DNA from: an uncultured Gammaproteobacteria bacterium
GTDB lineage: Bacteria > Patescibacteriota > Patescibacteriia > UBA11705 > JABHMO01
Direction: 5' to 3'
Assembly (NCBI GenBank): GCA_964605975.1
Contig: CAZSER010000002.1
Location: 1 to 43,059 of the forward strand
DNA length: 43,059 nucleotides
This document shows positions 1,359 through 16,026 of this stretch, piece by piece. Position numbers and translations under genes: made by a program. Below the pieces are notes generated by a model that saw only the letters and a program-made list of their open reading frames with translations, was not told where the DNA came from and made no database searches. Numbering within the stretch: the first letter of the stretch is position 1; each line of letters begins with the position of its first letter.

Positions 1359-3068
1359 TTACATCTCTTGCAAAGTCTCAATATTTAGGATTCCCAAGCC
1401 CTGTTGCAAAACCTCCTTTGTTTTCAAACAAAGCATCAATCTCATTTTCTGTAATTTATTTTCTGCCGAAAGAACTGGGCAATTATGATAAAAAGAGTTA
1501 AAAAGTTGCCCCAGCTCCAACAAATAAACACTCACACCAACCAAAGAATCAGTTTTGTCCGCCTTTTCAATAACTTCCGAAAACTGTCCAATTTTTTGTA
1601 ATAATAATCGCTCATTTTTATCTTGTAAGATTTTCCAATCCAGTAAGTATTTTGCTGGTTTTTTCTTTTTTAGAATTGAATTTATTCTAGAAATCACATA
1701 CAACAAATAAACACCAGAATCACCATCAAAAGATAACGCTTTTTTGACATCAAAAACAATAACACTGGAATTATCATATTTCAAAAGGAAAAACTTAATC
1801 CCTGCTAAGGCGATTTTCGAAGCAGTTTGTTCTATTTTTTCCTTTTCCCAATCACTATGTCGTTGCTCGGTCTGCTTCAAACTTTCATTTAAAACTTCCT
1901 GATAAAAATCATTAAAAATTACCACATTCCCCTTGCGAGAACTCATTGCACCATCTGGCAAAGTAACAAAATCATAATCAATATGAACTTTTTTCTTGTG
2001 TTCATATCCCAAAAGATCCAATAATTTAAAAACTTGTTTTAAATAAAGAGATTGTCTTTTGTCAACAATATAATAACTTTCTTCTACTTTGTATTGATTA
2101 AACTTTTTGATTCCAAGGGGTAAATCTTTGGCTCCATAGAGAAGATTTCCATCCGATTTAATCAAAACCAAAACATCCAATCCATGTTCTCGCAAATCGG
2201 CAATTACCGCACCATCACTATTTTTAATCTCCGCTATTTTTTTATTTTCTAATAAATTTTCTAACATTTTTTTGCCTGCGAATTCCTCTTCACTTTCAAA
2301 AAACCATAAGTCAAAAGAAATGTTTAACAGTTCATATACTTTTTGAAAATAATGTAAACTGGCATCTTTTGTTTGTTTCCAATCATTAAAAATTTTATTT
2401 TCTTCTTCACTTAACTTTTCTCGATTATTTTTTTTGTTTATTGCCTGATCAATAAGTCGATGAATCACTGAAACCTCTTCTGCTAACTTCTCGTTTTTTG
2501 ACAAATCTTCAACGGCTTCTGCGTAAATTTTGCCAAAAACATCACTCTTATCTACGGGCAAAACACCTTGATATTTCTTGTAAAAAAACCACAACCATTT
2601 CGCCACATGAGAACCACTATCACCAATATAATTAGCCGAAAAAACCTCTCTTCCACAAAATCTTTTTAAATTAACCAAAGAAGCTCCCAAAACGGCATTA
2701 CGCAAATGACCTATATGAAACTCTTTGTGCGTGTTCGGCTGAGAATACTCAATCATTATTTGTCCCGGCACCTTTTTATAGTTCGTCCTTCGACAAAGAA
2801 TTTTTTTGTTAAAATATCCCGCTAAAAAGTAAAAATTAACATAAGGACCAACGGCTTCAATTTTGGAAAGTTTTTTATCAACAACTTTACTAGAAATTTC
2901 CGTAGCTAATTCAATCGGATTTTTTTTCATTTTTCTAGCCAATTCAAAACAAGGGAGAGCCAAATCGCCCATTTCACCATTAGGAGGATAAGAAAAAACA
3001 GCAGGATCTATAACATATCCATAGTTTTGTAAAATTTTAACCAAATCTTTTTTTATTTGCGTAAACAT
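1359..3068 (-). CDS. argS: Arginine--tRNA ligase
   Basis: 569-aa ORF. Class I HIGH motif (NTHKEFHIGHLRNAVLG), MSSRKGNVV in the KMSKS position, and a C-terminal DALR-type anticodon-binding helical region. Confidence 0.9.
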   Translation of the reverse strand: MFTQIKKDLVKILQNYGYVIDPAVFSYPPNGEMGDLALPCFELARKMKKNPIELATEISSKVVDKKLSKIEAVGPYVNFYFLAGYFNKKILCRRTNYKKVPGQIMIEYSQPNTHKEFHIGHLRNAVLGASLVNLKRFCGREVFSANYIGDSGSHVAKWLWFFYKKYQGVLPVDKSDVFGKIYAEAVEDLSKNEKLAEEVSVIHRLIDQAINKKNNREKLSEEENKIFNDWKQTKDASLHYFQKVYELLNISFDLWFFESEEEFAGKKMLENLLENKKIAEIKNSDGAVIADLREHGLDVLVLIKSDGNLLYGAKDLPLGIKKFNQYKVEESYYIVDKRQSLYLKQVFKLLDLLGYEHKKKVHIDYDFVTLPDGAMSSRKGNVVIFNDFYQEVLNESLKQTEQRHSDWEKEKIEQTASKIALAGIKFFLLKYDNSSVIVFDVKKALSFDGDSGVYLLYVISRINSILKKKKPAKYLLDWKILQDKNERLLLQKIGQFSEVIEKADKTDSLVGVSVYLLELGQLFNSFYHNCPVLSAENKLQKMRLMLCLKTKEVLQQGLGILNIETLQEM

Positions 3069-3530: not shown

Positions 3531-4718
3531 TTATTTTATTTTTATAAAAAATCTTTTACCCTTTTGAATCACATCTCCAGTTCGCAAAACGACAGTGCCA
3601 TCAGAACAAATCTGGTCATTTATCTTAACGCCATTTTGCTCTATATTCCGCTTGGCATCAGATTTCGAGGAAACCAATCCACTCTCAACCAAAACTTCCA
3701 CTAAACTTTTTCCAACCAAATCAAACTCTTTAATTTCCTCCGGTTTTTCCTTTTGAGAAAAAGTTTTTACAAAGTTTTCTACTTGTTTTTTGGCTTCCTC
3801 TGCACCATGATAAATCGCCACTACCGCCTCCGCTAACTCTAGCTTAAGATTTCGTGGATTTTCTCCCTCAGAAATTCGCTTTTTTACCTCCGCTAAACGA
3901 TCTTCGTCTATTTGAGTACACAAATCAAAACCATTAATAATCATCCCATCACTCCATGACATTACCTTACCAAATTTATCACCAGCAGAATCATCTAAAC
4001 GCAACATATTCCCTTCGGACTTTCCCATTTTTTTTCCAGAATCATCAGTCAAAAGTTTTGTCGTAATAACAAATTTTTCTTTGTTTTTGAGAGACTTCAT
4101 CAAAGTTCTTCCTGCCAACATATTAAAAGTTTGATCATTCCCGCCAACTTCACCATCAACATCCATGGCAACAGAATCATAACCTTGCATCAACGGATAC
4201 AAAAATTCATGCAGACCGATTGGTTTGCCTTCTTTTATTCTCTTTTCAAACATATCTCGTTCCAACATTTGTTGAACCGTAAAATTAGAAGCTAACTCTA
4301 TAACTTCCTGAAAATTCATCTTGTCTAACCAATCAGCATTGAATTTTATTTCTGCTGGATTTTCTCCTGCAAAATCAATCCAAGCGGATGCTTGTTCTTT
4401 GTATTTCTCACAATTTGCCAAAACTTGTTGTCGCGTTAATGGTTGCCTAACGGAAGATTTATCAGTCGGATCACCAATCATGGCCGTAAAACTCCCAATT
4501 AGCAGAATAATTTTGTGTCCTAACTTTTGAAACTGCGCCAACTTCATCAAAGGGATAGCATGACCTAAATGCAAACTTGGCCCTGTGGGATCAACACCCA
4601 AATACAAAGTGATTTTATGTTTTGAATTTAAAAGCTCTTCTAAAAATTTAGCTGTGGGGTAAATTTTTTCTACCCCGCGAGTCAAAACTTGTTTAATTAT
4701 TTCTTGGTTTTTATTCAT
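3531..4718 (-). CDS. tyrS: Tyrosine--tRNA ligase
   Basis: 395-aa ORF. GVDPTGPSLHLGHAIPL (HIGH), KMGKSEGN (KMSKS), and a C-terminal S4-like domain (SKSDAKRNIEQNGVKIN). Confidence 0.92.
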   Translation of the reverse strand: MNKNQEIIKQVLTRGVEKIYPTAKFLEELLNSKHKITLYLGVDPTGPSLHLGHAIPLMKLAQFQKLGHKIILLIGSFTAMIGDPTDKSSVRQPLTRQQVLANCEKYKEQASAWIDFAGENPAEIKFNADWLDKMNFQEVIELASNFTVQQMLERDMFEKRIKEGKPIGLHEFLYPLMQGYDSVAMDVDGEVGGNDQTFNMLAGRTLMKSLKNKEKFVITTKLLTDDSGKKMGKSEGNMLRLDDSAGDKFGKVMSWSDGMIINGFDLCTQIDEDRLAEVKKRISEGENPRNLKLELAEAVVAIYHGAEEAKKQVENFVKTFSQKEKPEEIKEFDLVGKSLVEVLVESGLVSSKSDAKRNIEQNGVKINDQICSDGTVVLRTGDVIQKGKRFFIKIK

Positions 4719-4927: not shown

Positions 4928-7621
4928 TTAACTATTTTTTAATTTGTCCATCATTTCGACAGTTTTATCAAGACGCTCTTTTAATGTCACCAAAAAGCCT
5001 TCATTCTTAAAACCGTCTACATCATTATCTTCAAAGAAAGTAACTCGACGCAACAACTCTTCCAACTGCTTCTTTTCGGATTCTAATTTCAAAAATAGTT
5101 GGACTCTTTCTTCTGGTGTCATTTTGTTTGGATCAGGCATTACTTCTACTTCATTTGTAACTTTTTCTGGAATTTTTCTTGCCTGACCAGCAGGTTTTCC
5201 AAATAATAAATCCGCAACTTCTAATAAGTCATAATTTTTTCTTTTTACAAATTGACTATCATTTTTCTTAACACGAGTAATCGCATCAACTCCATATAAA
5301 AACTTTTTGTGTCCAGAAAAATTAACCAGCTCCTTCATCTCATTAAAATCAGTCGCCTCCGGCCAGTCAATTTCATCTTTTTCTTGAAAAAAGTTCCCGA
5401 CAATACTCAAGATTTTATAAATATACGCTTTTTCTTCTGGTCGCGCATCAGATTGTGAAACATAATAACGATACAAATAAACATCCAATGGAGAAGAAAA
5501 CCCGTCCTTTTTCCACTCACTCAAAATAGTGGCTAGTTCACGAAAAGTTAAAACATTTTCTTTCAAAACATCTCGCGGATCTATATTTGCACCACTGGAA
5601 TCCTTTAAATAGTAGTTTGTTTCAATTTTATTTCCCGAAAAAATATCCTGCAACCCCCTGGCGACAACAGCCAATCGATACAAAGCTTCTTCTCCCATTT
5701 TTTTATCTTCGGGCAAGGTCAAATTCCCATCATCATCCATTAAGCGAACAACCATCATATGAAAAAGTTCATTATTTGCCAATAATTTTCTTCTTTTTTC
5801 CATTTGTTGTTCAAAATTAGGATCTGTTTCCGAAATATTAATTAACCCCTCGCTATCAATAGCATTTGGCAAATAATCATATTTAATTTTATCAAAACGA
5901 GATAAGAAAGCAGAATCCATTGCTTGTCTTCCAATATAAACCTTATCCGTAGCTGGACGCCAATTACCAGTACAGATAAAAACAAAACCATCTTTGACTT
6001 CAAACGGTGGTAGATCATCTACCAAAGGCTTAACCAAATCGCCAGGTCTTCGAGTTAAAATTTCATTTAAAACAATCAATACATTATGCGGGATAGCATT
6101 AATTTCATCAATGATAACTGGACGCCCCTCCATCATGGCGCGATAAACTAACCCCAAATATCCCTTGGCTTCAATTGGATTTTTAAAAAAATCCTTCAAA
6201 GCATCAACATAAACGGCAACCAACTCTTCTACTCTATCCTCCGCCACGCTCTCTTCTTTTTTGCTTAAACGAAACGCCTCTATCTTATCACTAATTATTT
6301 TTGTTTGTTCTTCGGGCGTTCTCTTTATCACCTTTTCCATTTTAATTCCGCCCAATAGATCGGTAGTATCCGTATTTTTATTTCCAGAAATCACAAAAAC
6401 TTCATTTTTTAGCTCTTCATATTTAGCCAACCATTGTCGATATTTTTTTCTCCACTCTTTTAATTCTGCCGTTTTTTTACTAGTAGGCTGACTTCGGTAT
6501 TGTTCAAATTCTTTTACTGCTTTTTCATAATTTAATAATGCCTGATCAAAACTTTCTTGATCATCATAATCATCACGATCTGGATTAGGAAGAACTTCTG
6601 GTGCCTCCGGTTTCACTGGAGGAGGATTATCCTTCTTCCACCGTAGCAAGAACTTCTTGTTTAGCTGCGTTATAGACAAATGCCGAGCGACCTCCGTTTT
6701 ACCTGCCCCCTTTTCTCCATAAAGAAAAACCGGTCTTCCTTCTTCCAAAGAGTCCATGATTTCCGACATTTTTTCTAACACATACGGAGTTTCAACGACT
6801 CTCCTTCCTTTTCCTTCCGAAAAAACGGTCCGCATATCCATAATATTTTCAATCGCCACAGCATAATGAGCATCAACATCATCACGCAATAAAACATCTA
6901 ACTTTGTTTTTAATATTTTATAATCATTCTTTGCTTTATCCATGGTTTTATAATCACCACGCAAAGAAGCTCTCTCTCTTAAAGCCAACAAACTTTCTAA
7001 TCTTTTTTTTGTACGCTTTACCTTAACACCCATCCTAAAAATTCGATCTTTTTTAAATTCAAAAGTAGCAACATCTTCGTCAGTAAAATAGTTTTCACCA
7101 TCCTCATTGCCGGAGAGCTTGAGATATAGAGCTTTAATTTCAGCTAACTTCCCTACAATAAGTTCTATTTCTTGATTAACATAACTTTCTACTTCCTCCT
7201 TGTTTAAACTGTCTAAATCCTTAGTTGACAAAAAAAGCTGTTCTCTAATTTTTTTCTTGTTTATAAACTCCACACAACTTTGAGGATCAGAAACGGAAAG
7301 TCTATTCATTGTTAAACGACGATAACTTTTTTGAGAACTCCTTTCACTTTTTTCGATTTTTCTAACCACCTTACCATCATTACCAGAAGATAACCTTTCT
7401 TTTGGCAGTTTAACGCTCTTAATATTTTTTATTTCATCTCCACCAGATAATGCCTTCAAAAAAGGTCTAATATCTCTCCATAACCGGTGGTACTCTCGAT
7501 AGGTCTCGAAATACTCTTTCGCTTTAAGGAGCCTTGTTTCATAATTCTCAATTTCTTCTGGCGAAGCTTTTTCTCTCTCCTTTGCTTTTGGAATAGCAAT
7601 AAAATTTTCACGTAATACCAT
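4928..7621 (-). CDS. Large AAA+ ATPase, AAA_5/MoxR-like module with insertions, flanked by long N- and C-terminal extensions
   Basis: 897-aa ORF. Walker A GEKGAGKT (nt 6695-6718), Walker B PVIIDEINAI (about nt 6104-6118), sensor-1-like FVFICTGN, and an Arg-finger region DSAFLSRFDKI. ISGNKNTDTTDLLGG resembles the AAA_5 signature. Confidence 0.75.
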   Translation of the reverse strand: MVLRENFIAIPKAKEREKASPEEIENYETRLLKAKEYFETYREYHRLWRDIRPFLKALSGGDEIKNIKSVKLPKERLSSGNDGKVVRKIEKSERSSQKSYRRLTMNRLSVSDPQSCVEFINKKKIREQLFLSTKDLDSLNKEEVESYVNQEIELIVGKLAEIKALYLKLSGNEDGENYFTDEDVATFEFKKDRIFRMGVKVKRTKKRLESLLALRERASLRGDYKTMDKAKNDYKILKTKLDVLLRDDVDAHYAVAIENIMDMRTVFSEGKGRRVVETPYVLEKMSEIMDSLEEGRPVFLYGEKGAGKTEVARHLSITQLNKKFLLRWKKDNPPPVKPEAPEVLPNPDRDDYDDQESFDQALLNYEKAVKEFEQYRSQPTSKKTAELKEWRKKYRQWLAKYEELKNEVFVISGNKNTDTTDLLGGIKMEKVIKRTPEEQTKIISDKIEAFRLSKKEESVAEDRVEELVAVYVDALKDFFKNPIEAKGYLGLVYRAMMEGRPVIIDEINAIPHNVLIVLNEILTRRPGDLVKPLVDDLPPFEVKDGFVFICTGNWRPATDKVYIGRQAMDSAFLSRFDKIKYDYLPNAIDSEGLINISETDPNFEQQMEKRRKLLANNELFHMMVVRLMDDDGNLTLPEDKKMGEEALYRLAVVARGLQDIFSGNKIETNYYLKDSSGANIDPRDVLKENVLTFRELATILSEWKKDGFSSPLDVYLYRYYVSQSDARPEEKAYIYKILSIVGNFFQEKDEIDWPEATDFNEMKELVNFSGHKKFLYGVDAITRVKKNDSQFVKRKNYDLLEVADLLFGKPAGQARKIPEKVTNEVEVMPDPNKMTPEERVQLFLKLESEKKQLEELLRRVTFFEDNDVDGFKNEGFLVTLKERLDKTVEMMDKLKNS

Positions 7622-7640
7622 ATTTTTTATATTAATTTTC

Positions 7641-9896
7641 TTAATTATCCGAACTAAGAACTTCTATTTGAGTTAATGCTTTATCTATTTGTTGTGATAA
7701 TAAAATCACACATTTTTCGACATAATCTGAAACTGTTTCAACGACAACACCATCCCCATTCAAATCATCCTCTGCATTCCCATGAATCCCAAAAAATACC
7801 GTTCTCGCCTGCTCACTATAAGGCCCCCTTATTTTCTCACCTTTTTCGTCAATTATTGGAAGATCAATCAAAAAAGCTTTGGTAATTATAGTTTCTTTGT
7901 CTTTTCCTTTTAAAGCATGAATAATATTTCTTGTTTTTTGGGAATCACGAATAAGACCATCTGTTGTTTCCAAAGTAATATCAACCAATTTTCTTTCTTT
8001 AATTCTCTTTCTATCCTCTGGCAAAAAAGTTGCATCCACCAACTCCCAAGCAGGAAAACTTACTGTATCCTCATGAGAAGCATCCATTTTGGCAAAAGCA
8101 GCGTATCTCATAATTCGATCCTCTATTCCATTTCTCGCTTGCCCATTGCGCAATAAAGGTTTTACTTCTTTCATTTTATCTTCTTCACCCCAAACAATTA
8201 CTTGAGTATTAACCAAAATTGGAGGTTTTGTTAGATTTAACTCCCGAAAACGATTTTCTAATCGTGACTGAAATTCATTTAAAGCCTCCGAAAAAAGCAC
8301 CATCATTTGACGAGCCGAATGCATTATATCTCCTTTCATAGATCCCGAATTATCAAACAAAAACCGCAAACGAAACTCGTCCGGTTGTAATTTTAATTTC
8401 TCAATAAACTCTTTTCGTTCATAAGCCTCTAGTCTATCAAAGGGAATAAAAAAATCTTCCTCTTCACTAGAAAAAAAATGGCTGTACCTCTTTAATAATC
8501 TTTTGACATCCAACCTACCAGAATAAAAATATTTTTCCCAAGCAAAAGAAATCTGTTTTTCTATCGTATTAATTGCTCTCTCAAATATAGTTGCCAAATC
8601 ATCCCGATAAGGCTCAACTGACTTTTTTAACGCCTCATAACTCATTATATGCTCCGCTGTTACTCCCTCCGCAGTTAAGCGCTCTTGGTGCGCTCTGTAA
8701 AAATCTAGCGACTCCTGTCTATCATAATAATCTTTTTTTTGTTCTGGAGTTAATCTTTCATATCTTTTCTTTTTGTTTTCTTGTCTTTTTTTACTTCTAT
8801 CAAACTTCTTTCTCTCTTCAATAAATTTTTTAACCTCTTCAATATCAAAAGGCATTTCGGTTATTGAATTTTTATCAGGCTTTTTATTTGAGATTTTACC
8901 TTTACTTCTTTCACCCTCACCCTCACCCTTGTTGCATGGATCATCTAGTGGTATTTCCATGTCAGAGAAATCTAATTCTAATAAACGCCAAAATTCTGGC
9001 TCCAGAAACTGCTCTATTTTTGAGTATCTCAAAGAAGCCAAATCTTTTCTGTGTTTCAAGTTAGGATCAGGAGTGGTTATCTGTTCTGTAAGATCAGTCA
9101 AGCTTGTTCCAAAAAAGTTTTTAGACAAAGTATTATAAACATCCGGATGACATAAAATCCTCTGATCAGGAACCATTCTTTGACGCAAAAGAACTCCGCC
9201 AAACTGATCTACTCTCATTCCCATGAAAAAACACAGATCCTCAGCACCACTTTCTTCTCCCCTAGCCTTGGCTGGAAAAAGAAAGTCTCGATATAATCTC
9301 TTGACCATTGGAGAAGTCCCCGCACCAAACTGACTTAATTTAACCCCAACAAACCTATTAACATAAATATCATCCAAATAGTTATAAAATTTATTCCTTT
9401 GTGATGTTAAAAACAGTTCCAGTCCGGTCATTTTTTCTCCCGTTTTTTCGTCAATAACTCTTTCTTTATCTATCCATGCTGGTAATTTAGAAAATCGCTT
9501 ATTCAATATTTCACGAAAAAATGACGCTTTTTCTCTAGCCAGTTCTTTACTTTTTTGAAAGTTACTTAATAAACCCTCCGGATCTGCCACCAAATCAGCA
9601 AAGTGCGCTAATTCATGACAACATGCCCAAAGTGGAGCATCTTTCTCTCCATTAAGTTCATGTTTCCATTTAAAAAGCTCCAACCCCAACTGAACTTTCC
9701 CTTCCAAAAACTGAATATGACTGCCCTCTCCTACTTGATATTGCAAACTACTATCACCAGAAATAATATCTAAAATATCCTTATTAAAAGAAATGAAATC
9801 TTCCGCTTCTTTTCGCAACTCCTCTGGATTAATAATTCTTTTTTTCTTCGGAGTGCTTATTCTTTCTTCTGCCAAAAAATTAAAGCTCTTTTCCAT
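7641..9896 (-). CDS. HExxH (zincin-like) N-terminal region + C-terminal von Willebrand factor A (MIDAS) domain protein
   Basis: 751-aa ORF. CCHELAHFADL holds the HExxH (nt 9603-9617). LRFLFDNSGSMKGD holds the DxSxS MIDAS motif (nt 8340-8354), with a downstream ETTDG motif. A Lys/Glu/Arg-rich linker covers aa ~320-400. The gene lies 19 nt upstream of the AAA+ gene on the same strand. Confidence 0.7.
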   Translation of the reverse strand: MEKSFNFLAEERISTPKKKRIINPEELRKEAEDFISFNKDILDIISGDSSLQYQVGEGSHIQFLEGKVQLGLELFKWKHELNGEKDAPLWACCHELAHFADLVADPEGLLSNFQKSKELAREKASFFREILNKRFSKLPAWIDKERVIDEKTGEKMTGLELFLTSQRNKFYNYLDDIYVNRFVGVKLSQFGAGTSPMVKRLYRDFLFPAKARGEESGAEDLCFFMGMRVDQFGGVLLRQRMVPDQRILCHPDVYNTLSKNFFGTSLTDLTEQITTPDPNLKHRKDLASLRYSKIEQFLEPEFWRLLELDFSDMEIPLDDPCNKGEGEGERSKGKISNKKPDKNSITEMPFDIEEVKKFIEERKKFDRSKKRQENKKKRYERLTPEQKKDYYDRQESLDFYRAHQERLTAEGVTAEHIMSYEALKKSVEPYRDDLATIFERAINTIEKQISFAWEKYFYSGRLDVKRLLKRYSHFFSSEEEDFFIPFDRLEAYERKEFIEKLKLQPDEFRLRFLFDNSGSMKGDIMHSARQMMVLFSEALNEFQSRLENRFRELNLTKPPILVNTQVIVWGEEDKMKEVKPLLRNGQARNGIEDRIMRYAAFAKMDASHEDTVSFPAWELVDATFLPEDRKRIKERKLVDITLETTDGLIRDSQKTRNIIHALKGKDKETIITKAFLIDLPIIDEKGEKIRGPYSEQARTVFFGIHGNAEDDLNGDGVVVETVSDYVEKCVILLSQQIDKALTQIEVLSSDN

Positions 9897-9975: not shown

Positions 9976-12900
9976 TTACTGTAAATTTTTAACTGTTTCA
10001 ATAATTTTTTGTTGACGATCTTTTGCTTCCGTTAATTTGTTTTTTTCGGACTCAACAATATTGAGTGGAGCATTTTTAACAAAATCTTCATTTTCTAATT
10101 TAGTTGATAAATTTTTAATATATTTTTCCAAATTAGCCAACTCTTCTTTCTGTCTCTTGACTTCTATTTGCAAATCCAATAACTTGGCCAAAGGCAAGTA
10201 AATCGTTGTTTTGCCAACAATGGCAGAAGCCGATTGTGGCGGTTTTTCGGTGACAACTTCAATCTCATTAAGTCGTGCCAAAACTTTTAAAATTTCTAGT
10301 GATGGATACCATTTCTCAACTTCACCAGATAAACACAACCGAACCTTTTTAACCGGATCAATTTTATAAGTTGCCCTGATATTTCTTACGGCACCAACTA
10401 ACTGACGAAACTCTTCATAAAACTCCTCCGCGTCAATATCCATCATACTCAAAGAACTTTCTGGCCATTTCTCAATTAACAAAAATTTTTCTGGCTGGAA
10501 TTTTTCATAAACAGCCTGACTAACAAAAGGAATATATGGTTGCCAATATTTCAAAAGTTCCAATAATAAATTATAAAAAATTTTTTCTTTCCCTTTTTCG
10601 ACTTTACTAATTTCCAAATACCAATCGGCCAAATCATCCCACATAAACTCTCGCAAAACTTCACCCGAAGCCGAAAAGTTGTATTCATCCAAAAGTTGCG
10701 TTGTTTTTTGTTTCACTTTTTGCCATTTCGAAACAATTGCTCGATCAAAAACTGTCCAATCTTTTTGCTCTCCCCAGTCACCTTCTTGCATTTGCGACCC
10801 CCCCCCCTTTTCTTCCAAAAGAGTAAATAGATATCTAGAGATATTCCATAACTTATTAACTAAATTACGAAAACCTTCGATTTTTTCATCATATAAACGA
10901 ATATCATTCCCTGCCGTATTCCCGACTAACAAACTCAAACGAACAGCATCCATACCGTATTTTTCTCCAGCAATTAACGGATCAATTGCCGTCTGTGGTT
11001 TTGATTTGCTCATCTTGTCACCATCTTTGTCGCGAATTAAACCATGTAAATAGACCGTCTCAAAAGGAATTTCTCCGATATTATAAGTTGTCATCAAAAT
11101 CATTCTAGCCACCCAAAAAAACAAAATATCATACCCCGTTTCCATAACAGAAACCGGATGAAATTTTTTAATATCCTCCGAAGAAAAACTTTTTCCATCC
11201 CAATCTTCTGGCAACATTGTAGAAAATGTCCATAATCCAGAACTAAACCAAGTGTCCAAAGTATCTTCATCTTGCAACCAACCATCTTCCACTATCTCTG
11301 TCTCCGAAACTTTTATTTCTGTTGGTGCTAAATCTAACTCAAAATAACAACCAGTATTTGGATATGGCAATTTGGTAAAATTTTCCGCTTCATAATTGTT
11401 CCCCAAAAAGCTAGCCATGCGAATAGAATCTCCATGCGCCACAACTAAAACAGTTCTCTTAGCAAATTTATCTTGTAAATCCTGACACGCCTCGTAAACT
11501 CTTTTTTGCAAAGAGTTAAAAGATTCAATGTTTCGTGGAGTTCCATCTTTCCATTGTGGCCAATTTTTTTCTCGAAAATCACTAAATTCCTCATCGGTCA
11601 TCCCCTCAAAATCACCAACACCCACTTCTCGCCAACGAGAATCGGCAATCAACTCCGAAACACCTAACTCTTGAGCCAAAATTTCTGCCGTTTGTTTTGT
11701 TCTAGTAAAATCTGAATAAATTATTAAATCTATCTTTTTGTTTTTTAATTCTTGGGCCGATTTTTTGACTTCTTCTACCCCTAAATCAGTTAAAACATTT
11801 TCTATTTTAGAAATATCCGAATTTAAAAAACCTTTTTGATTTCCCACAGCTTGACCATGCCGAAAAAATATAACCTTCTTTCCTTGTTTATACCAAACGG
11901 GAATTCTGTGACCAAACCAAATTTGTCTAGAAATACACCAATCATGCAAATTATCCATCCAATGTTCATAAGTTTTTGCAAAACGATCCGGAATAATTTT
12001 TATTTCTCCCGATTTAACAACCTGTAAAGCAACATCTTTCAGAGATGCCCCTCGTTCAAAATATTTATTTCCCTTTTTGGTAATTTTTTTATTAACATCA
12101 ACAAACCACTGATTAGAAGGAATAGGCTCTATCGCCGTACCACAACGATAACAAAGTGATAAATTATGTTTTAAATCTTCCTGTTGCGAAATTAAATTTT
12201 GACCTTCTAAACATTGAACTATTTTTTCTCGAGCTTCAAGAGCGGTAAACCCGAAATATCTTCCAGCCTCTCGAGTCATTTTACCTTCTTCATCAATAAC
12301 CCTGATTAAAGGTAACCTGTTTTTTTGAGACATTTCATAATCCACCGAACTATGCGCCGGTGTCACACCCAACGCGCCTGTTCCAAAAGTAGGATCAACA
12401 TTTTCATCAGCAATAATTTTTAGTTTTAACTTATTACCACAAAAATCAGCCAAAATAGTTTTGCCAATAAATTTTTGATACCGTTCATCTTGCGGATTAA
12501 CCGCTACGGCCGTATCTCCCAACTTTGTCTCCGGTCGAGTAGTAGAAATTTCAAAAGGGAAATTTTTATCATAGCGAAAAGTATAAAACTTAGTTGTTTT
12601 TTCCTTGTAATCTACTTCATCATCAGCCAAGGTAGATTGACAACGAGGACACCAATTAACAATTCTATAACCACGATAAATTAACCCATCATCAAACATG
12701 TTTTTAAAAACTTTGCGAACAACACGACTTCGTAACTCATCCAAGGTATAAGCCTCTCGAGACCAATCCAAAGCAGAACCAACTTTTTTGATCTGTTTTT
12801 TTATTGTTGATTTAGACTCTTCAACATGTTCTTCCACTTTTTGCAAAAAATCCTTTCGGCCAAAATCATGTCTGGATTTTCCTTCCGTTTTTAATAATTT

Positions 12901-13188
12901 TTTTTCAACAACATTTTGCGTCGCAATAGAAGCATGATCCGTTCCGGGGATCCAAACAGTGGTAAACCCCTGCATTTTTTTATAACGAATCATTAAATCT
13001 TCAATTGCCAACATCGAAGCGTGACCTAAATGCAATGTTCCAGTCACATTTGGAGGTGGTAAAACAATGGAAAAATGTTTCCCGTTTTTAACTGGTCCAC
13101 AATCAGGAGAGAAAAGCTTTTTATTTTCCCACTCTTGATAAATTCTTTCTTCATTTTCTTGCGGATTATAAACCTTACAAAAATCCAT
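9976..13188 (-). CDS. valS: Valine--tRNA ligase with an embedded histidine-phosphatase (PGAM-like) domain
   Basis: 1070-aa ORF. PPPNVTGTLHLGHA (HIGH), editing-domain motifs TTRPETKLGDTAVAVNP and GTGALGVTPAHSSVDYE, WCISRQIWFGHRIPVWY, DTLDTWFSSG, KMSKSK, and a C-terminal coiled coil. An extra segment of about 190 aa (aa ~437-625) carries FFRHGQAVGN and VVAHGDSIRM. Confidence 0.92.
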   Translation of the reverse strand: MDFCKVYNPQENEERIYQEWENKKLFSPDCGPVKNGKHFSIVLPPPNVTGTLHLGHASMLAIEDLMIRYKKMQGFTTVWIPGTDHASIATQNVVEKKLLKTEGKSRHDFGRKDFLQKVEEHVEESKSTIKKQIKKVGSALDWSREAYTLDELRSRVVRKVFKNMFDDGLIYRGYRIVNWCPRCQSTLADDEVDYKEKTTKFYTFRYDKNFPFEISTTRPETKLGDTAVAVNPQDERYQKFIGKTILADFCGNKLKLKIIADENVDPTFGTGALGVTPAHSSVDYEMSQKNRLPLIRVIDEEGKMTREAGRYFGFTALEAREKIVQCLEGQNLISQQEDLKHNLSLCYRCGTAIEPIPSNQWFVDVNKKITKKGNKYFERGASLKDVALQVVKSGEIKIIPDRFAKTYEHWMDNLHDWCISRQIWFGHRIPVWYKQGKKVIFFRHGQAVGNQKGFLNSDISKIENVLTDLGVEEVKKSAQELKNKKIDLIIYSDFTRTKQTAEILAQELGVSELIADSRWREVGVGDFEGMTDEEFSDFREKNWPQWKDGTPRNIESFNSLQKRVYEACQDLQDKFAKRTVLVVAHGDSIRMASFLGNNYEAENFTKLPYPNTGCYFELDLAPTEIKVSETEIVEDGWLQDEDTLDTWFSSGLWTFSTMLPEDWDGKSFSSEDIKKFHPVSVMETGYDILFFWVARMILMTTYNIGEIPFETVYLHGLIRDKDGDKMSKSKPQTAIDPLIAGEKYGMDAVRLSLLVGNTAGNDIRLYDEKIEGFRNLVNKLWNISRYLFTLLEEKGGGSQMQEGDWGEQKDWTVFDRAIVSKWQKVKQKTTQLLDEYNFSASGEVLREFMWDDLADWYLEISKVEKGKEKIFYNLLLELLKYWQPYIPFVSQAVYEKFQPEKFLLIEKWPESSLSMMDIDAEEFYEEFRQLVGAVRNIRATYKIDPVKKVRLCLSGEVEKWYPSLEILKVLARLNEIEVVTEKPPQSASAIVGKTTIYLPLAKLLDLQIEVKRQKEELANLEKYIKNLSTKLENEDFVKNAPLNIVESEKNKLTEAKDRQQKIIETVKNLQ

Positions 13189-13350: not shown

Positions 13351-14418
13351 ATGACTATTTTTCCTCCAACTCATATCCAAAAAATCAAATTGGCCAAAAG
13401 GCCACTAATTATTCTACCTGAAAATCCGGGGATTGACCATCTTGGCAGTGGTTTAGCTATTTATAATTTATTAAAAAATACTGGTTCACTACCAACCATC
13501 TTCTCCCCCCACTTTAAACCCTCTGAAAAATTTTCACTTTGGGAAGAAGTCAAAGAAATTTTGGGAGAAGTAAAAGAAGATTATGTTCTTTCTATTGATA
13601 TAGATGGCGACAAAATACCTGATATTCAATATGAAAAAAAAGCAGGAAAAATATCAATTAAAATCATTACCCCCAAAGGAAAAGCTCCTCAAATAAATAC
13701 GCTTTCTAATTCTTTTGATCTTTTTATTCTTTTAAACTTAAATGAAAATGAAGATTTTTTAAAAAAAATTACAAACTCTAAATATGAACATATTATTAAT
13801 ATAAAAACCGAGATAGAAAATTTTACTAAGACTCAAGTCTCTTTATCTGAAATTATTTTTGATTTAAGTAAAAATTTTGATAACAAATATTTTAATGAAA
13901 AAATAGCCTCATATCTATTAGCAGGAATGATCGAAAAAACAAAAGGCTTTCGCTCTCCAGAAATAAATTCCCGTAGTTTACAAATCGCTAGCGAACTTCT
14001 AGACAAAGGAGCAGAAAGAGAAAAAATAATGCAAAATCTTTTTGGCAAACAAACCATTGGATCAATTAAATTATGGGGCAAAATTCTATTAAAACTCCAA
14101 ACTCATTTTGACGAAAAAGTTGCCTTTGCTCAAATTTCCGAACAAGATTTTTTGGAAACAAAAGCCAGCCCCTCGGATCTTCCAGGTGTAATTGATGAAC
14201 TAATTCTTTCTATTCCGACAATTAACTTTAGTATTTTAATTTATCAACAAAAAGGTCAAAATTTTTGTTTAATAAAATCCACCGAAAATAGCAATTTTTC
14301 TGCCCTTTTTCCAGAATATAATTTAAAAGAAAATAATGGCTTTTTTACTTTTCCTTTTTCTGGTTCAATTGATTATTTATTAGAAAAAATAAAATTAGTT
14401 CTATCGCTCGACAAATAG
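13351..14418 (+). CDS. DHH/DHHA1 (NrnA-like) family homologue with degenerate catalytic motifs
   Basis: 355-aa ORF. Its architecture and ASYLLAGMIEKTKGFRSPEINSRSLQIASELLDKGAE resemble the NrnA central region. The expected DxD, DHH, DTG and GGGH motifs read NPGIDHLGSG, HIINIK, EKTKG and FPFSGS. Confidence 0.45.
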   Translation: MTIFPPTHIQKIKLAKRPLIILPENPGIDHLGSGLAIYNLLKNTGSLPTIFSPHFKPSEKFSLWEEVKEILGEVKEDYVLSIDIDGDKIPDIQYEKKAGKISIKIITPKGKAPQINTLSNSFDLFILLNLNENEDFLKKITNSKYEHIINIKTEIENFTKTQVSLSEIIFDLSKNFDNKYFNEKIASYLLAGMIEKTKGFRSPEINSRSLQIASELLDKGAEREKIMQNLFGKQTIGSIKLWGKILLKLQTHFDEKVAFAQISEQDFLETKASPSDLPGVIDELILSIPTINFSILIYQQKGQNFCLIKSTENSNFSALFPEYNLKENNGFFTFPFSGSIDYLLEKIKLVLSLDK

Positions 14419-14450: not shown

Positions 14451-14527
14451 GGGCCTGTAGCTCAGTCGGTAAGAGCACCACTCTTATAAAGTGGGGGTCC
14501 TGGGTTCAAATCCCAGCAGGCCCACCA
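14451..14527 (+). tRNA. tRNA-Ile, anticodon UAU
   Basis: Hand-folded cloverleaf. Acceptor gggcctg/caggccc, D stem gctc/gagc, anticodon stem ccact/agtgg with loop cTTATAa, T arm ctggg-ttcaaat-cccag, discriminator A, encoded CCA. A TcGACA-17-TATAAT promoter sits at 14408-14436. Confidence 0.8.
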
Positions 14528-14597: not shown

Positions 14598-14674
14598 GGG
14601 CGCTTAGCTCAGTTGGTTAGAGCGTCTCGTTGACGTCGAGAAGGTCAGTGGTTCGAATCCACTAGCGCCCACCA
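14598..14674 (+). tRNA. tRNA-Val, anticodon GAC
   Basis: Acceptor gggcgct/agcgccc, anticodon stem tctcg/cgaga with loop ttGACgt, T arm agtgg-ttcgaat-ccact, encoded CCA. TTGACA at 14556-14561 with a TATTAT-like -10 element. Confidence 0.9.
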
Positions 14675-14955: not shown

Positions 14956-16026
14956 ATGAAAAAGGGTAATGAAGGATTTGTTTTTCGGTTTTTTGTCAAG
15001 AAAGCCAAGATGGCAGTTCAGATTGAATTGCCGTTCTGTGCTAATCTTGGAGATTTCTTTTCCTGCTTCCTGATTGCCCAGGAAGCCGGAAAGGGGTTCT
15101 TGGTTAAGAACGCCCCGAAGGGGAAAATCTCCATTGGGCGCAACTTCCGAGAACTGGAAGTTGATGGCGCCTGCTCAGAAGAACCTTGGCTGTTCTTTGC
15201 TAAGTATCTCGGAGTTAGCGAAAAGCCGGAATACCAACCGTTTTTTGCCTACCTCGAGAATAATGAGGGAAGAAAAGCCGAGAATGGATTTTGGCAGTTT
15301 ATTAATAACTGCTATCGATTATGGGGATGCGAAGAAAAAACCTTCCAGCAGGTTTTTCTTATCGCCATTTTGGCGATAAAAGTCCAACTTCTCTACCCTG
15401 GAGAGTTTTCTCTCTCCGAGATAAAAAGGAAGTTTGGACTTTTGAGCCCAGAGCTTCAAAGCTGGTTTGGAGCACTGGTTCAGTCCGTTGAGGACGGTTG
15501 TGCTGTTCTCCGACAAGAGGCGAGGCAAGAGATTGCCGATCGAAACGGGGACAAGTTTCTCATATTTCAGAGTGATAATCCCTTTGTCATTTCTGAACAA
15601 GTAAAGAAAAACCCCCAAACCGACCTGATTGTCCAGGAGTTTAGTGATGGACATTTTGTCCTAGCTAATCCTTCTGGTGGACTATTACCAGAACTTTTTC
15701 GGGGACTTAATGTTCTTGAAAATGAGTCCGGAAAAGTCCTCAATTGGGACGAACTCTCAAAACCGGGAGTTGGACCAGGAAAGTTTTGGTACCTCTCTCC
15801 TGGTAGAAACCTACTGAGCAACGGCGGCCCCGCCCTGCCCGCAATGTCCAGGGGAAAAAGTGACATAGTTAACTTCATTGAGCAATGGTATAACAACATT
15901 GCATTTGGAGAAGAATGTCCTCGAACCGGAGCAGAACATTGCACCAGTTCGAAAAAATTGCCCTGTCGAGAGTTCAAATTTGGCTGGACGATCTGTCGTC
16001 AAATACGCCAATCAGTCAAAGATTAG
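14956..16026 (+). CDS. Hypothetical protein, compositionally atypical (GC-rich), C-terminal 4-Cys cluster
   Basis: 356-aa uninterrupted ORF with a strong SD. No family recognised. The C-terminus reads EECPRTGAEHCTSSKKLPCREFKFGWTICRQ. Five overlapping long ORFs in other frames indicate stop-codon-poor, GC-rich DNA. Confidence 0.6.
   Translation: MKKGNEGFVFRFFVKKAKMAVQIELPFCANLGDFFSCFLIAQEAGKGFLVKNAPKGKISIGRNFRELEVDGACSEEPWLFFAKYLGVSEKPEYQPFFAYLENNEGRKAENGFWQFINNCYRLWGCEEKTFQQVFLIAILAIKVQLLYPGEFSLSEIKRKFGLLSPELQSWFGALVQSVEDGCAVLRQEARQEIADRNGDKFLIFQSDNPFVISEQVKKNPQTDLIVQEFSDGHFVLANPSGGLLPELFRGLNVLENESGKVLNWDELSKPGVGPGKFWYLSPGRNLLSNGGPALPAMSRGKSDIVNFIEQWYNNIAFGEECPRTGAEHCTSSKKLPCREFKFGWTICRQIRQSVKD

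Follow-up and report, generated by a model that had tools for sequence, protein, structure and literature searches.

A complete histidine phosphatase embedded in the Rossmann fold of a valyl-tRNA synthetase from a Patescibacteria-type contig

The contig CAZSER010000002.1 (assembly GCA_964605975.1), deposited as an uncultured Gammaproteobacteria bacterium and placed by GTDB in the Patescibacteriota, encodes a valyl-tRNA synthetase (ValRS) that carries a histidine phosphatase inside its catalytic domain. We analyzed the stretch of 43,059 nucleotides of this contig (hereafter, the window), and all coordinates given below are positions in the whole window, not in the feature. A preliminary description of the window had proposed an in-frame histidine phosphatase within ValRS, and the profile match (PF00300, E = 1.3e-32), the catalytic residues, the predicted fold and the recurrence of the architecture all agree with that proposal. 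As judged from its motifs and models, the insertion is almost certainly a real and active phosphatase. The main features of the gene are as follows.

9976–13188, minus strand: valS, a 1070-residue ValRS with the phosphatase inside (single unbroken open reading frame; NF004349; alignment with 1GAX)
13021–13032, minus strand: HIGH signature HLGH, residues 53–56 (H53 and G55 invariant in the 59-sequence alignment A3)
12334–12363, minus strand: editing-site motif TPAHSSVDYE of connective peptide 1 (CP1), with H279 and D283 (both invariant in A3)
11320–11886, minus strand: inserted histidine phosphatase (PF00300), approximately 189 residues, residues 435–623 (Pfam envelope residues 439–615, nucleotides 11344–11874)
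11236–11265, minus strand: DTLDTWFSSG, at the start of the second Rossmann half and between the insertion sites S1 and S2 (described below; located by motif)
11002–11016, minus strand: KMSKS signature, residues 725–729 (K725 and K728 invariant in A3)
9982–10746, minus strand: anticodon-binding domain (residues 815–950) and C-terminal coiled-coil tRNA-binding arm (residues 1005–1069) (Pfam)

The intact motifs and the equivalog scores indicate that the host is a functional ValRS. The whole protein scored 936.7 bits with the NCBIfam valine–tRNA ligase equivalog NF004349 (cutoff 704) and 850.6 bits with a second ValRS model, TIGR00422 (cutoff 612.1), and a protein identical to it (P0121) was recovered from NCBI in a full-length protein search. 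The ValRS of T. thermophilus (1GAX) aligns with it in two blocks (E = 2e-178), with residues 1–436 of the query corresponding to residues 1–419 of 1GAX and residues 639–1066 corresponding to residues 448–858. The Pfam match of tRNA-synt_1 is likewise broken into two stretches with His_Phos_1 between them. The HIGH and KMSKS signatures, the CP1 His and Asp, the anticodon-binding domain (PF08264, E = 3.9e-25) and the coiled coil (PF10458, E = 1.8e-11) are all intact around the insert, residues L644, D645, T646, W647, F648 and S649 of the DTLDTWFSSG block are invariant among the 59 sequences of A3, and the Pfam editing-domain match (PF13603) is weak. The continuous frame and the intact synthetase motifs on both sides, which the preliminary description had reported, were thus recovered in one 1070-residue open reading frame.

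The His_Phos_1 profile (PF00300) matched residues 439–615 of the whole protein with 113.5 bits (cutoff 21.7), covering profile positions 1–177 of 194, and the insert searched alone gave E = 4.4e-34. The insert had been placed at 11314–11880 (residues 437–625), which is essentially right and is here refined to 11320–11886. An excess of about 190 residues over reference enzymes had also been reported: at the insertion gap there are 202 query residues versus 28 in 1GAX, and the gap between the conserved blocks is 208 residues versus 21 in ValRSs of the Candidate Phyla Radiation (CPR) that lack the insert. The four phosphatase motifs quoted in the preliminary description are all present where it had put them.

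11839–11874, minus strand: RHG motif VIFFRHGQAVGN, residues 439–450, with R443, the nucleophile H444, and N450 (located by motif)
11671–11709, minus strand: FTRTKQTAEILAQ, residues 494–506, with the second phosphate-binding Arg R496 (located by motif)
11584–11634, minus strand: WREVGVGDFEGMTDEEF, residues 519–535, with E521, the presumed proton donor (located by motif)
11416–11451, minus strand: VLVVAHGDSIRM, residues 580–591, with the second catalytic His H585 (located by motif)

To judge by its sequence, the domain is a complete branch-1 histidine phosphatase that retains every catalytic residue and is apparently active. Conservation was assessed over 312 domains (84 ValRS-embedded, 121 IleRS-embedded, that is, embedded in isoleucyl-tRNA synthetase, and 107 stand-alone), the overall identity among which is only 30–45%. 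The Arg, His and Asn of the RHG motif are kept in 78, 82 and 81 of the 84 ValRS-embedded domains, respectively, and each is conserved in at least 84% of the IleRS-embedded and stand-alone classes; the equivalents of R443-H444-G445 are kept in 67–71 of 73 inserts and in approximately 93–99% of the 312 domains. The equivalent of R496 is present in 83/84 ValRS-embedded, 121/121 IleRS-embedded and 107/107 stand-alone domains, that of H585 in 83/84, 121/121 and 106/107, and the E521 position is Glu or Asp in at least 99% of the 312 domains. Taken as a full set, R443, H444, N450, R496, E521 and H585 are kept in 67–72 of the 73 inserts and in approximately 95% or more of the 312 domains.

The profile match and the predicted structure describe the insert as a soluble α/β domain of the phosphoglycerate mutase-like fold. 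The AlphaFold2 model of the phosphatase core has a predicted local distance difference test score (pLDDT) of 97.5, and a Foldseek search with this model returned 9MMH, 4IJ5, 1H2E, 6E4B and 4QIH with a probability of 1.00 and a query-based TM-score (TMq) of 0.74–0.84. These fold neighbours are small phosphatases of approximately 200 residues, namely the riboflavin-pathway HFP of Aquifex (9MMH), PspA, PhoE, CobC and GpgP (TM-score approximately 0.8). Comparison of the insert with the small branch-1 phosphatases 9MMH (Aquifex HFP), 4IJ5 (PspA), 1H2E (PhoE/YhfR) and 6E4B (CobC) revealed that (i) they share with it a TM-score of approximately 0.8, a length of approximately 190 residues and the RHG...R...E...H set; (ii) their identity with the insert is only 19–27%; (iii) the insert falls under every phosphatase equivalog cutoff, including that of the α-ribazole phosphatase CobC (TIGR03162, 85.2 bits versus 162.9); and (iv) unlike the insert, those enzymes are not linked to a synthetase. 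The protein of 9MMH is the riboflavin ARAPDP phosphatase of Aquifex (PMC12051542), and the best sequence and fold matches, 9MMH and CobC, act on nucleotide-like 5'-phosphates. A CobC-like phosphatase fused to a nucleic-acid enzyme is also found in the actinobacterial RNase H/acid phosphatase (NF005567, Rv2228c type), the third-best NCBIfam match of the insert with 72.7 bits versus a cutoff of 326; however, that fusion is end-to-end and has another partner.

The insert lies between WCISRQIWFGHRIPVWY and DTLDTWFSSG, in the connective peptide 3 (CP3) subdomain of the Rossmann fold. The surroundings of the insertion point, which we designate S1, and of a second site used in other proteins, S2, are as follows.

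11890–11940, minus strand: WCISRQIWFGHRIPVWY, the linker between connective peptide 2 (CP2) and CP3 together with the strand just before S1 (located by motif and by homology with yeast IleRS)
11266–11319, minus strand: native CP3 hairpin EIKVSETEIVEDGWLQDE, retained 3' of the insert (matches the hairpin of insert-free CPR ValRSs)
11143–11235, minus strand: S2 loop, residues 652–682, empty in the window ValRS and occupied by a phosphatase in other ValRSs and IleRSs

In yeast IleRS (PMC7955072), residues 453-ARDWNVSRNRYWG-465 (WNVSRNRYWG motif) form the CP2–CP3 linker; this linker lines the pocket in which bound reveromycin A fills the tRNA binding site, and beyond it CP3 extends to where the second half of the Rossmann fold begins. 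This assignment locates the insertion in CP3, and by homology with the yeast linker the insertion site is probably close to the tRNA 3'-end pocket. The topology and zinc content of CP3 vary between species (PMC7191050). In insert-free CPR ValRSs the two conserved blocks are joined by a 21-residue hairpin; elsewhere in the family a zinc knuckle serves as host loop, with the phosphatase between its two CxxC halves, and the zinc-knuckle cysteines are not present in the window ValRS. The phosphatase begins directly after PVWYKQGK, with an upstream linker of approximately 4 residues, and the junctions read ...VWYKQGK|KVIFF... on the N-terminal side and ...LAPT|EIKVSE... on the C-terminal side. An intein was considered, given the patchy occurrence of the insert beside conserved motifs of essential genes, and rejected: there is neither a Cys/Ser/Thr N-junction nor a His-Asn-Cys/Ser/Thr C-junction, and the fold is His_Phos rather than Hint.

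The full-length model (pLDDT 87.7, predicted TM-score 0.77) has a pLDDT of 84–95 over the insert and 84–89 at the junctions, which together with the short linkers argues against a disordered tether. In the model, the phosphatase is rigidly attached beside the strand at the start of the second Rossmann half. At S2 in ValRS, CP3 is ordinary and the phosphatase is located approximately 20 residues downstream, after ...STLGWP and before FHPT..ETGYDILFFW; this arrangement was found in P0210, P0230, P0247 and P0001 and in five species-representative loci (L009, L015, L028, L035 and L037). S1 and S2 flank one active-site strand (DTLDTWFSSG), and they do so in two paralogous enzymes.

Other cargo occurs in the CP3 of CPR ValRSs: a serine hydrolase (PF06821) in P0164, a PhzF-like domain (PF02567) in P0227, a module of approximately 130 residues and of no assigned family in P0174, which also follows the phosphatase in P0126, modules of approximately 100 residues without a family in P0151 and P0232, and Lys-rich low-complexity expansions in some proteins.

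The preliminary description had asked whether related genomes carry the same insertion, and they do. Among the best 120 clusters of the full-length protein search, which come from independent assemblies, 66 are PF00300-bearing ValRSs of approximately 1050–1115 residues with 44–69% identity to the window protein, interspersed with insert-free CPR ValRSs of 865–910 residues. Where the sources are named, they are Falkow-, Kuenen-, Buchanan-, Moran-, Komeili- and Peregrinibacteria and the Parcubacteria/Patescibacteria group. The public name of these proteins in NCBI is only "class I tRNA ligase family protein." The GC content across the region is flat (0.349, 0.351 and 0.355), and the recurrence in independent assemblies together with this flat composition indicates that the insertion is not an assembly artefact. 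On a neighbor-joining tree of the ValRS cores, from which both loops (S1 and S2) had been excised, the presence of the insert needs 22 changes (19–23 in bootstrap replicates; approximately 43 when shuffled), which implies many gains or losses of the insert; the window ValRS falls in the largest pure insert-bearing clade, which has 15 members. A neighbor-joining tree of 231 phosphatase domains groups them by host (33 host changes versus approximately 109 when shuffled), its distances exceeding 1 substitution per site and its topology not being trusted.

Two further observations concern the host genomes. Several fusion-bearing metagenome-assembled genomes (binchicken; L008, L009, L012, L013, L028, L035, L037 and L065) are titled "uncultured Gammaproteobacteria" or "Elusimicrobia"; as their ValRSs are 88–100% identical or nearest to members of the fusion family, which are Patescibacteria where named, these labels are probably placeholders. 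In addition, short "partial" ValRS open reading frames of 144–412 residues (P0036, P0112, P0056 and P0045) lie on contigs of 77–644 kb, which are too long for these to be contig-edge truncations; valS may be split, frameshifted or recoded in part of the CPR.

The phosphatase clade is not confined to ValRS. In an exhaustive search of the insert against 1.84 billion representative proteins, the best 150 matches included approximately 63 IleRS-type and 7 ValRS-type hosts. The IleRS hosts scored 830–869 bits with TIGR00392 (NCBIfam, cutoff 621), with the profile interrupted at the homologous place and the phosphatase located between the CxxC halves of CP3; a few (P0272 and P0289) use an S2-type position just after DxWFDSG. 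The nearest free-standing relatives, P0090 and P0005, are encoded directly upstream of ileS. A further scan, which covered one genome for each GTDB species, used an alignment of seven sequences built around RTKQTAEI, a stretch within FTRTKQTAEILAQ, and so favours members with the exact motif. It gave 300 confirmed matches, and the counts of loci rest on the best 80, which come from 80 different assemblies and are almost all Patescibacteria by record title. Three arrangements were found.

ValRS fusion: 7 of the best 80 loci, 2 at S1 and 5 at S2; tyrS and then argS lie downstream, the order also seen in the window
IleRS fusion: approximately 50 of the best 80 loci, 42 complete hosts at S1; argS adjoins ileS, often with gaps of 4–7 bp
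Stand-alone gene of approximately 190 residues: 22–23 of the best 80 loci, mostly in the order argS-hisPhos-ileS

The stand-alone gene lies directly after argS in 19 of 22 cases and directly before ileS in at least 13, with gaps of −4 to 44 bp, and the IleRS beside a stand-alone copy lacks the insert in 19 of 19 cases; in locus L022, a fused IleRS is accompanied by an insert-free ValRS nearby. The fused and stand-alone forms are thus complementary, and the clade, found almost only in Patescibacteria/CPR as judged by record titles, occurs in three interchangeable arrangements: alone, in IleRS and in ValRS.

All 49 complete hosts carry the domain internally, in agreement with the earlier view of a genuine internal insertion rather than a terminal fusion, and none has it fused to a terminus of ArgRS or IleRS. 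As gaps of 3–6 bp would make read-through fusion the easiest route, this absence makes the internal position look selected. ArgRS and TyrRS, although equally near neighbours, were never seen as hosts in the surveyed loci. Apparent N-terminal phosphatase–IleRS fusions and split IleRSs of approximately 650–750 residues were rejected as 5'-truncated fragments that start in CP3 or in the phosphatase. Two tandem copies of the domain were observed in the ValRS P0195, in several IleRSs, and in P0250, P0274 and P0242, the ValRS P0241 carries 3–4 copies, P0289 and L084 also belong to the multi-copy cases, and stand-alone doublets of approximately 410 residues exist; such tandem arrangements hint at a dimeric mode of action.

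Of the known systems, the CAAD domain of cyanobacteria comes closest in its pattern of evolution. According to PMC4893482 (and Olmedo-Verd et al. 2011, as cited there), CAAD resembles the phosphatase in that (i) it is lineage-restricted and recurs in class I synthetases, mainly ValRS and IleRS; (ii) it uses two alternative insertion points in ValRS, which for CAAD were read as independent events; and (iii) its stand-alone homologs (curt1) adjoin a synthetase gene, gltX, in related species. The likeness is one of evolutionary pattern only, and a CAAD-type anchored synthetase (CURT1 homology, two transmembrane helices) was rejected: CAAD is a non-catalytic transmembrane anchor outside the catalytic domain, whereas the insert is a soluble phosphatase with an intact active site inside the Rossmann fold, by the predicted tRNA 3'-end pocket. 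Modules within the Rossmann fold of Ile/Val/LeuRS are also known from the CP1 editing domain and from the IleRS with an embedded GNAT domain (NF040702). Unlike the phosphatase in CP3, which is a phosphoryl-transfer enzyme, CP1 is universal and hydrolyses aminoacyl esters.

The searchable library yielded no paper on a histidine phosphatase or phosphoglycerate mutase within or adjacent to ValRS or IleRS, nor on domain insertions in CPR synthetases. As far as we found, a phosphatase wired into the Rossmann fold of a synthetase is undescribed, the proteins being public only under generic names. The preliminary description knew of no synthetase with an embedded phosphatase; this stands as regards the literature, but the window protein is not unique, for the domain is widespread in CPR ValRSs and also occurs in IleRS or beside ileS.

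In our best explanation, to which we give somewhat less than even confidence, the isoleucyl and valyl synthetases have in the phosphatase, whether stand-alone or embedded, an accessory enzyme that would act with them next to the synthetic site and the pocket for the tRNA 3' end. Held rigidly at this place, it would hydrolyse a phosphomonoester presented at the pocket, and removal of this group would let charging proceed. The complementary forms and the always-internal position at two loops that flank one active-site element suggest that phosphatase and synthetase are physically associated when the former works, and functional coupling of the two is, by a small margin, the side on which we come down. 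The likeliest substrates would be of the adenosine-phosphate type, either tRNA whose A76 bears a 3'(2')-phosphate or a pyrophosphate, or a free nucleotide-like phosphate. Such a substrate would fit both the nucleotide-like 5'-phosphates on which CobC and HFP act and the toxSAS toxins, which block aminoacylation by pyrophosphorylating the CCA ends of tRNAs (10.1101/2021.04.30.441581; PMC11559606). The preliminary description had already named tRNA 3'-end phosphates and phosphorylated nucleotides as possible substrates, and possible they are; a nucleotide or tRNA-end substrate specifically is a speculative proposal that we hold to be rather doubtful.

Several points weigh against an accessory enzyme of this kind. 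The ValRS-embedded domains are acidic (median isoelectric point 5.3, net charge −7), which is not expected of a module that approaches tRNA, and no member of the histidine phosphatase superfamily is known to act on RNA ends. The PADLOC defence library gave no match for the insert or for the stand-alone P0090, and a link to defence systems was rejected on this ground. As the cargo described above shows, CP3 is a permissive loop that accepts unrelated domains. In these lineages the phosphatase gene lies close to valS, tyrS, argS and ileS in the genome, and the choice of genes that capture the phosphatase could be skewed by nearness alone. Lastly, one copy per genome is supported weakly, by the 80 loci from 80 assemblies together with the single case L022.

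The neighbouring genes and the permissive loop keep one rival serious, namely that a housekeeping metabolic phosphatase (PspA-, CobC-, HFP- or PhoE-like) was captured repeatedly by the CP3 of its neighbours and works independently of aminoacylation, the fusion only securing co-expression. We regard this as possible, though not probable. It accords with the small-molecule phosphatases being the closest characterised relatives, with the unrelated cargo that CP3 tolerates (serine hydrolase, PhzF, low-complexity expansions), with host genes that neighbour the stand-alone gene, with the acidity of the ValRS-embedded domain, and with a patchy presence (19–23 changes on the host tree) that suggests easy gain and loss; removal of CAAD from the cyanobacterial enzyme, moreover, barely affected ValRS catalysis (PMC4893482). 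A mere passenger, however, leaves unexplained why no ArgRS or IleRS was found with it at a terminus despite the gaps of 3–6 bp, why the domain is internal in 49/49 complete hosts, why, in two paralogous enzymes, the two sites lie on either side of one and the same active-site strand, why the linkers are short and confidently modelled rather than flexible tethers, and why the equally near ArgRS and TyrRS are never hosts.

An accessory enzyme that clears a phosphomonoester from the charging site also has to be weighed against a regulatory phosphatase acting in cis, like PGAM5, Sts or SixA, which would strip an inhibitory phosphate from the synthetase or a partner (placed, for example, by a HipA/HipT-type kinase) or would sense a phosphometabolite and so tune charging. 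Several members of the superfamily are protein phosphatases, HipA-family kinases inactivate the class I synthetases GltX and TrpS by phosphorylating them near the active site, and the intact catalytic set and the rigid attachment to the catalytic domain would suit such a role. We consider it improbable: neither the window nor the 87 loci examined revealed a kinase partner, though without a systematic search for kinases, the best profile and fold matches are small-molecule phosphatases rather than SixA, PGAM5 or Sts, and PADLOC gave no match.

Two further alternatives fare worse. That the insert has lost its enzymatic role and is an inert structural or oligomerisation module, which replaces the CP3/zinc-knuckle scaffold or dimerises the synthetase, is very unlikely; the zinc-knuckle cysteines are indeed absent from the window ValRS, and the tandem double copies common in the family (P0195, P0250, P0274 and P0242) are reminiscent of dimers, many histidine phosphatases being dimeric, but catalytic residues conserved at approximately 95% or more in 312 domains of 30–45% identity are set against inertness, and, with the native hairpin retained, nothing needed replacing. 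The idea of a moonlighting metabolic enzyme raised in the preliminary description, taken as the organism's cofactor-dependent phosphoglycerate mutase (dPGM), is disfavoured, and we hold it for more unlikely still. The best NCBIfam match by E-value is the archaeal dPGM model NF038349, and CPR genomes are gene-poor; yet every dPGM model is far under its cutoff (NF038349, 92 versus 225 bits; TIGR01258, 33 versus 81.7; NF010713, 29.3 versus 305), the domain of approximately 185 residues groups by fold with the small phosphatases, and the S2-type ValRS-fusion genome L006 has two genes for cofactor-independent phosphoglycerate mutase beside enolase and phosphoglycerate kinase; the dPGM was rejected on the model scores and on these L006 genes. 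An assembly chimera or a frameshift that joined a phosphatase gene to valS, a concern with a metagenome-type contig such as this, is practically dismissed by the unbroken reading frame without a compositional step and by the same architecture in 66 of the 120 nearest clusters and in 7 ValRS and approximately 50 IleRS loci of different species-representative genomes.

The two synthetase genes that follow valS in the window are as follows.

3531–4718, minus strand: tyrS (PF00579, E = 1e-70)
1359–3068, minus strand: argS (PF00750, PF05746 and PF03485)

The order valS-tyrS-argS recurs in the ValRS-fusion loci L006, L013 and L037; elsewhere in the CPR, the stand-alone phosphatase gene comes directly after argS, with ileS next. 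Between valS and tyrS of the window (4928–9896, minus strand) lie genes for an 897-residue AAA_5 ATPase protein and a 751-residue protein without a family match, for which PADLOC gave weak matches only (DolB, E = 7e-6, and mad8). In L013, L015, L028 and L035, tyrS starts 4–34 bp after valS, and L006 has the same order; the gene pair at 4928–9896 may be an inserted island.

On the other side of valS, a DHH/NrnA-like gene (13351–14418, plus strand) is divergently oriented upstream, with an NCBIfam NrnA match of E = 1e-6 that is far under cutoff. It is kept in the S2-type fusion genome L006 (5914–7059, minus strand; 26% identity, E = 1e-27). NrnA-type enzymes are nanoRNases or pAp phosphatases. 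A tRNA-Ile gene with a TAT (UAU) anticodon (14451–14527, plus strand) is clustered with tRNA-Val(GAC), at 14598–14674, and tRNA-Ala(GGC) just upstream of valS. Most bacteria decode AUA with a lysidine-modified CAU tRNA, so that UAU is an uncommon anticodon for tRNA-Ile; it could affect recognition by IleRS in this lineage. A 356-residue open reading frame (14956–16026, plus strand) has a GC content of 0.46 versus approximately 0.34 in the rest of the window and gave neither a Pfam, NCBIfam or PADLOC match nor a credible one in Rfam; the stretch may have a foreign origin, or the gene may be specific to the lineage.

Few enzymes have been studied as closely as the aminoacyl-tRNA synthetases, whose known accessory modules in bacteria serve in editing, RNA binding or anchoring; an intact phosphoryl-transfer enzyme would be an addition to these. 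Two insertion sites, two paralogous hosts, the argS-hp-ileS operon and the wide spread in Patescibacteria take the phosphatase beyond a one-off curiosity and suggest that these episymbionts with minimal genomes need a phosphatase activity physically tied to the charging of Ile and Val. The identity of the substrate could reveal a step of tRNA-end repair or of defence against toxins, a regulatory input to translation, or the grafting of enzymes into permissive loops. It is conceivable, though on present evidence rather unlikely, that CPR bacteria have a dedicated IleRS/ValRS phosphatase that performs a previously unrecognised catalytic step in charging, either the unblocking of tRNA acceptor ends that bear a 3'(2')-phosphate or pyrophosphate or the destruction of a phosphorylated, nucleotide-like inhibitor at the synthetic site. 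If so, class Ia synthetases would have a third activity beside synthesis and editing.

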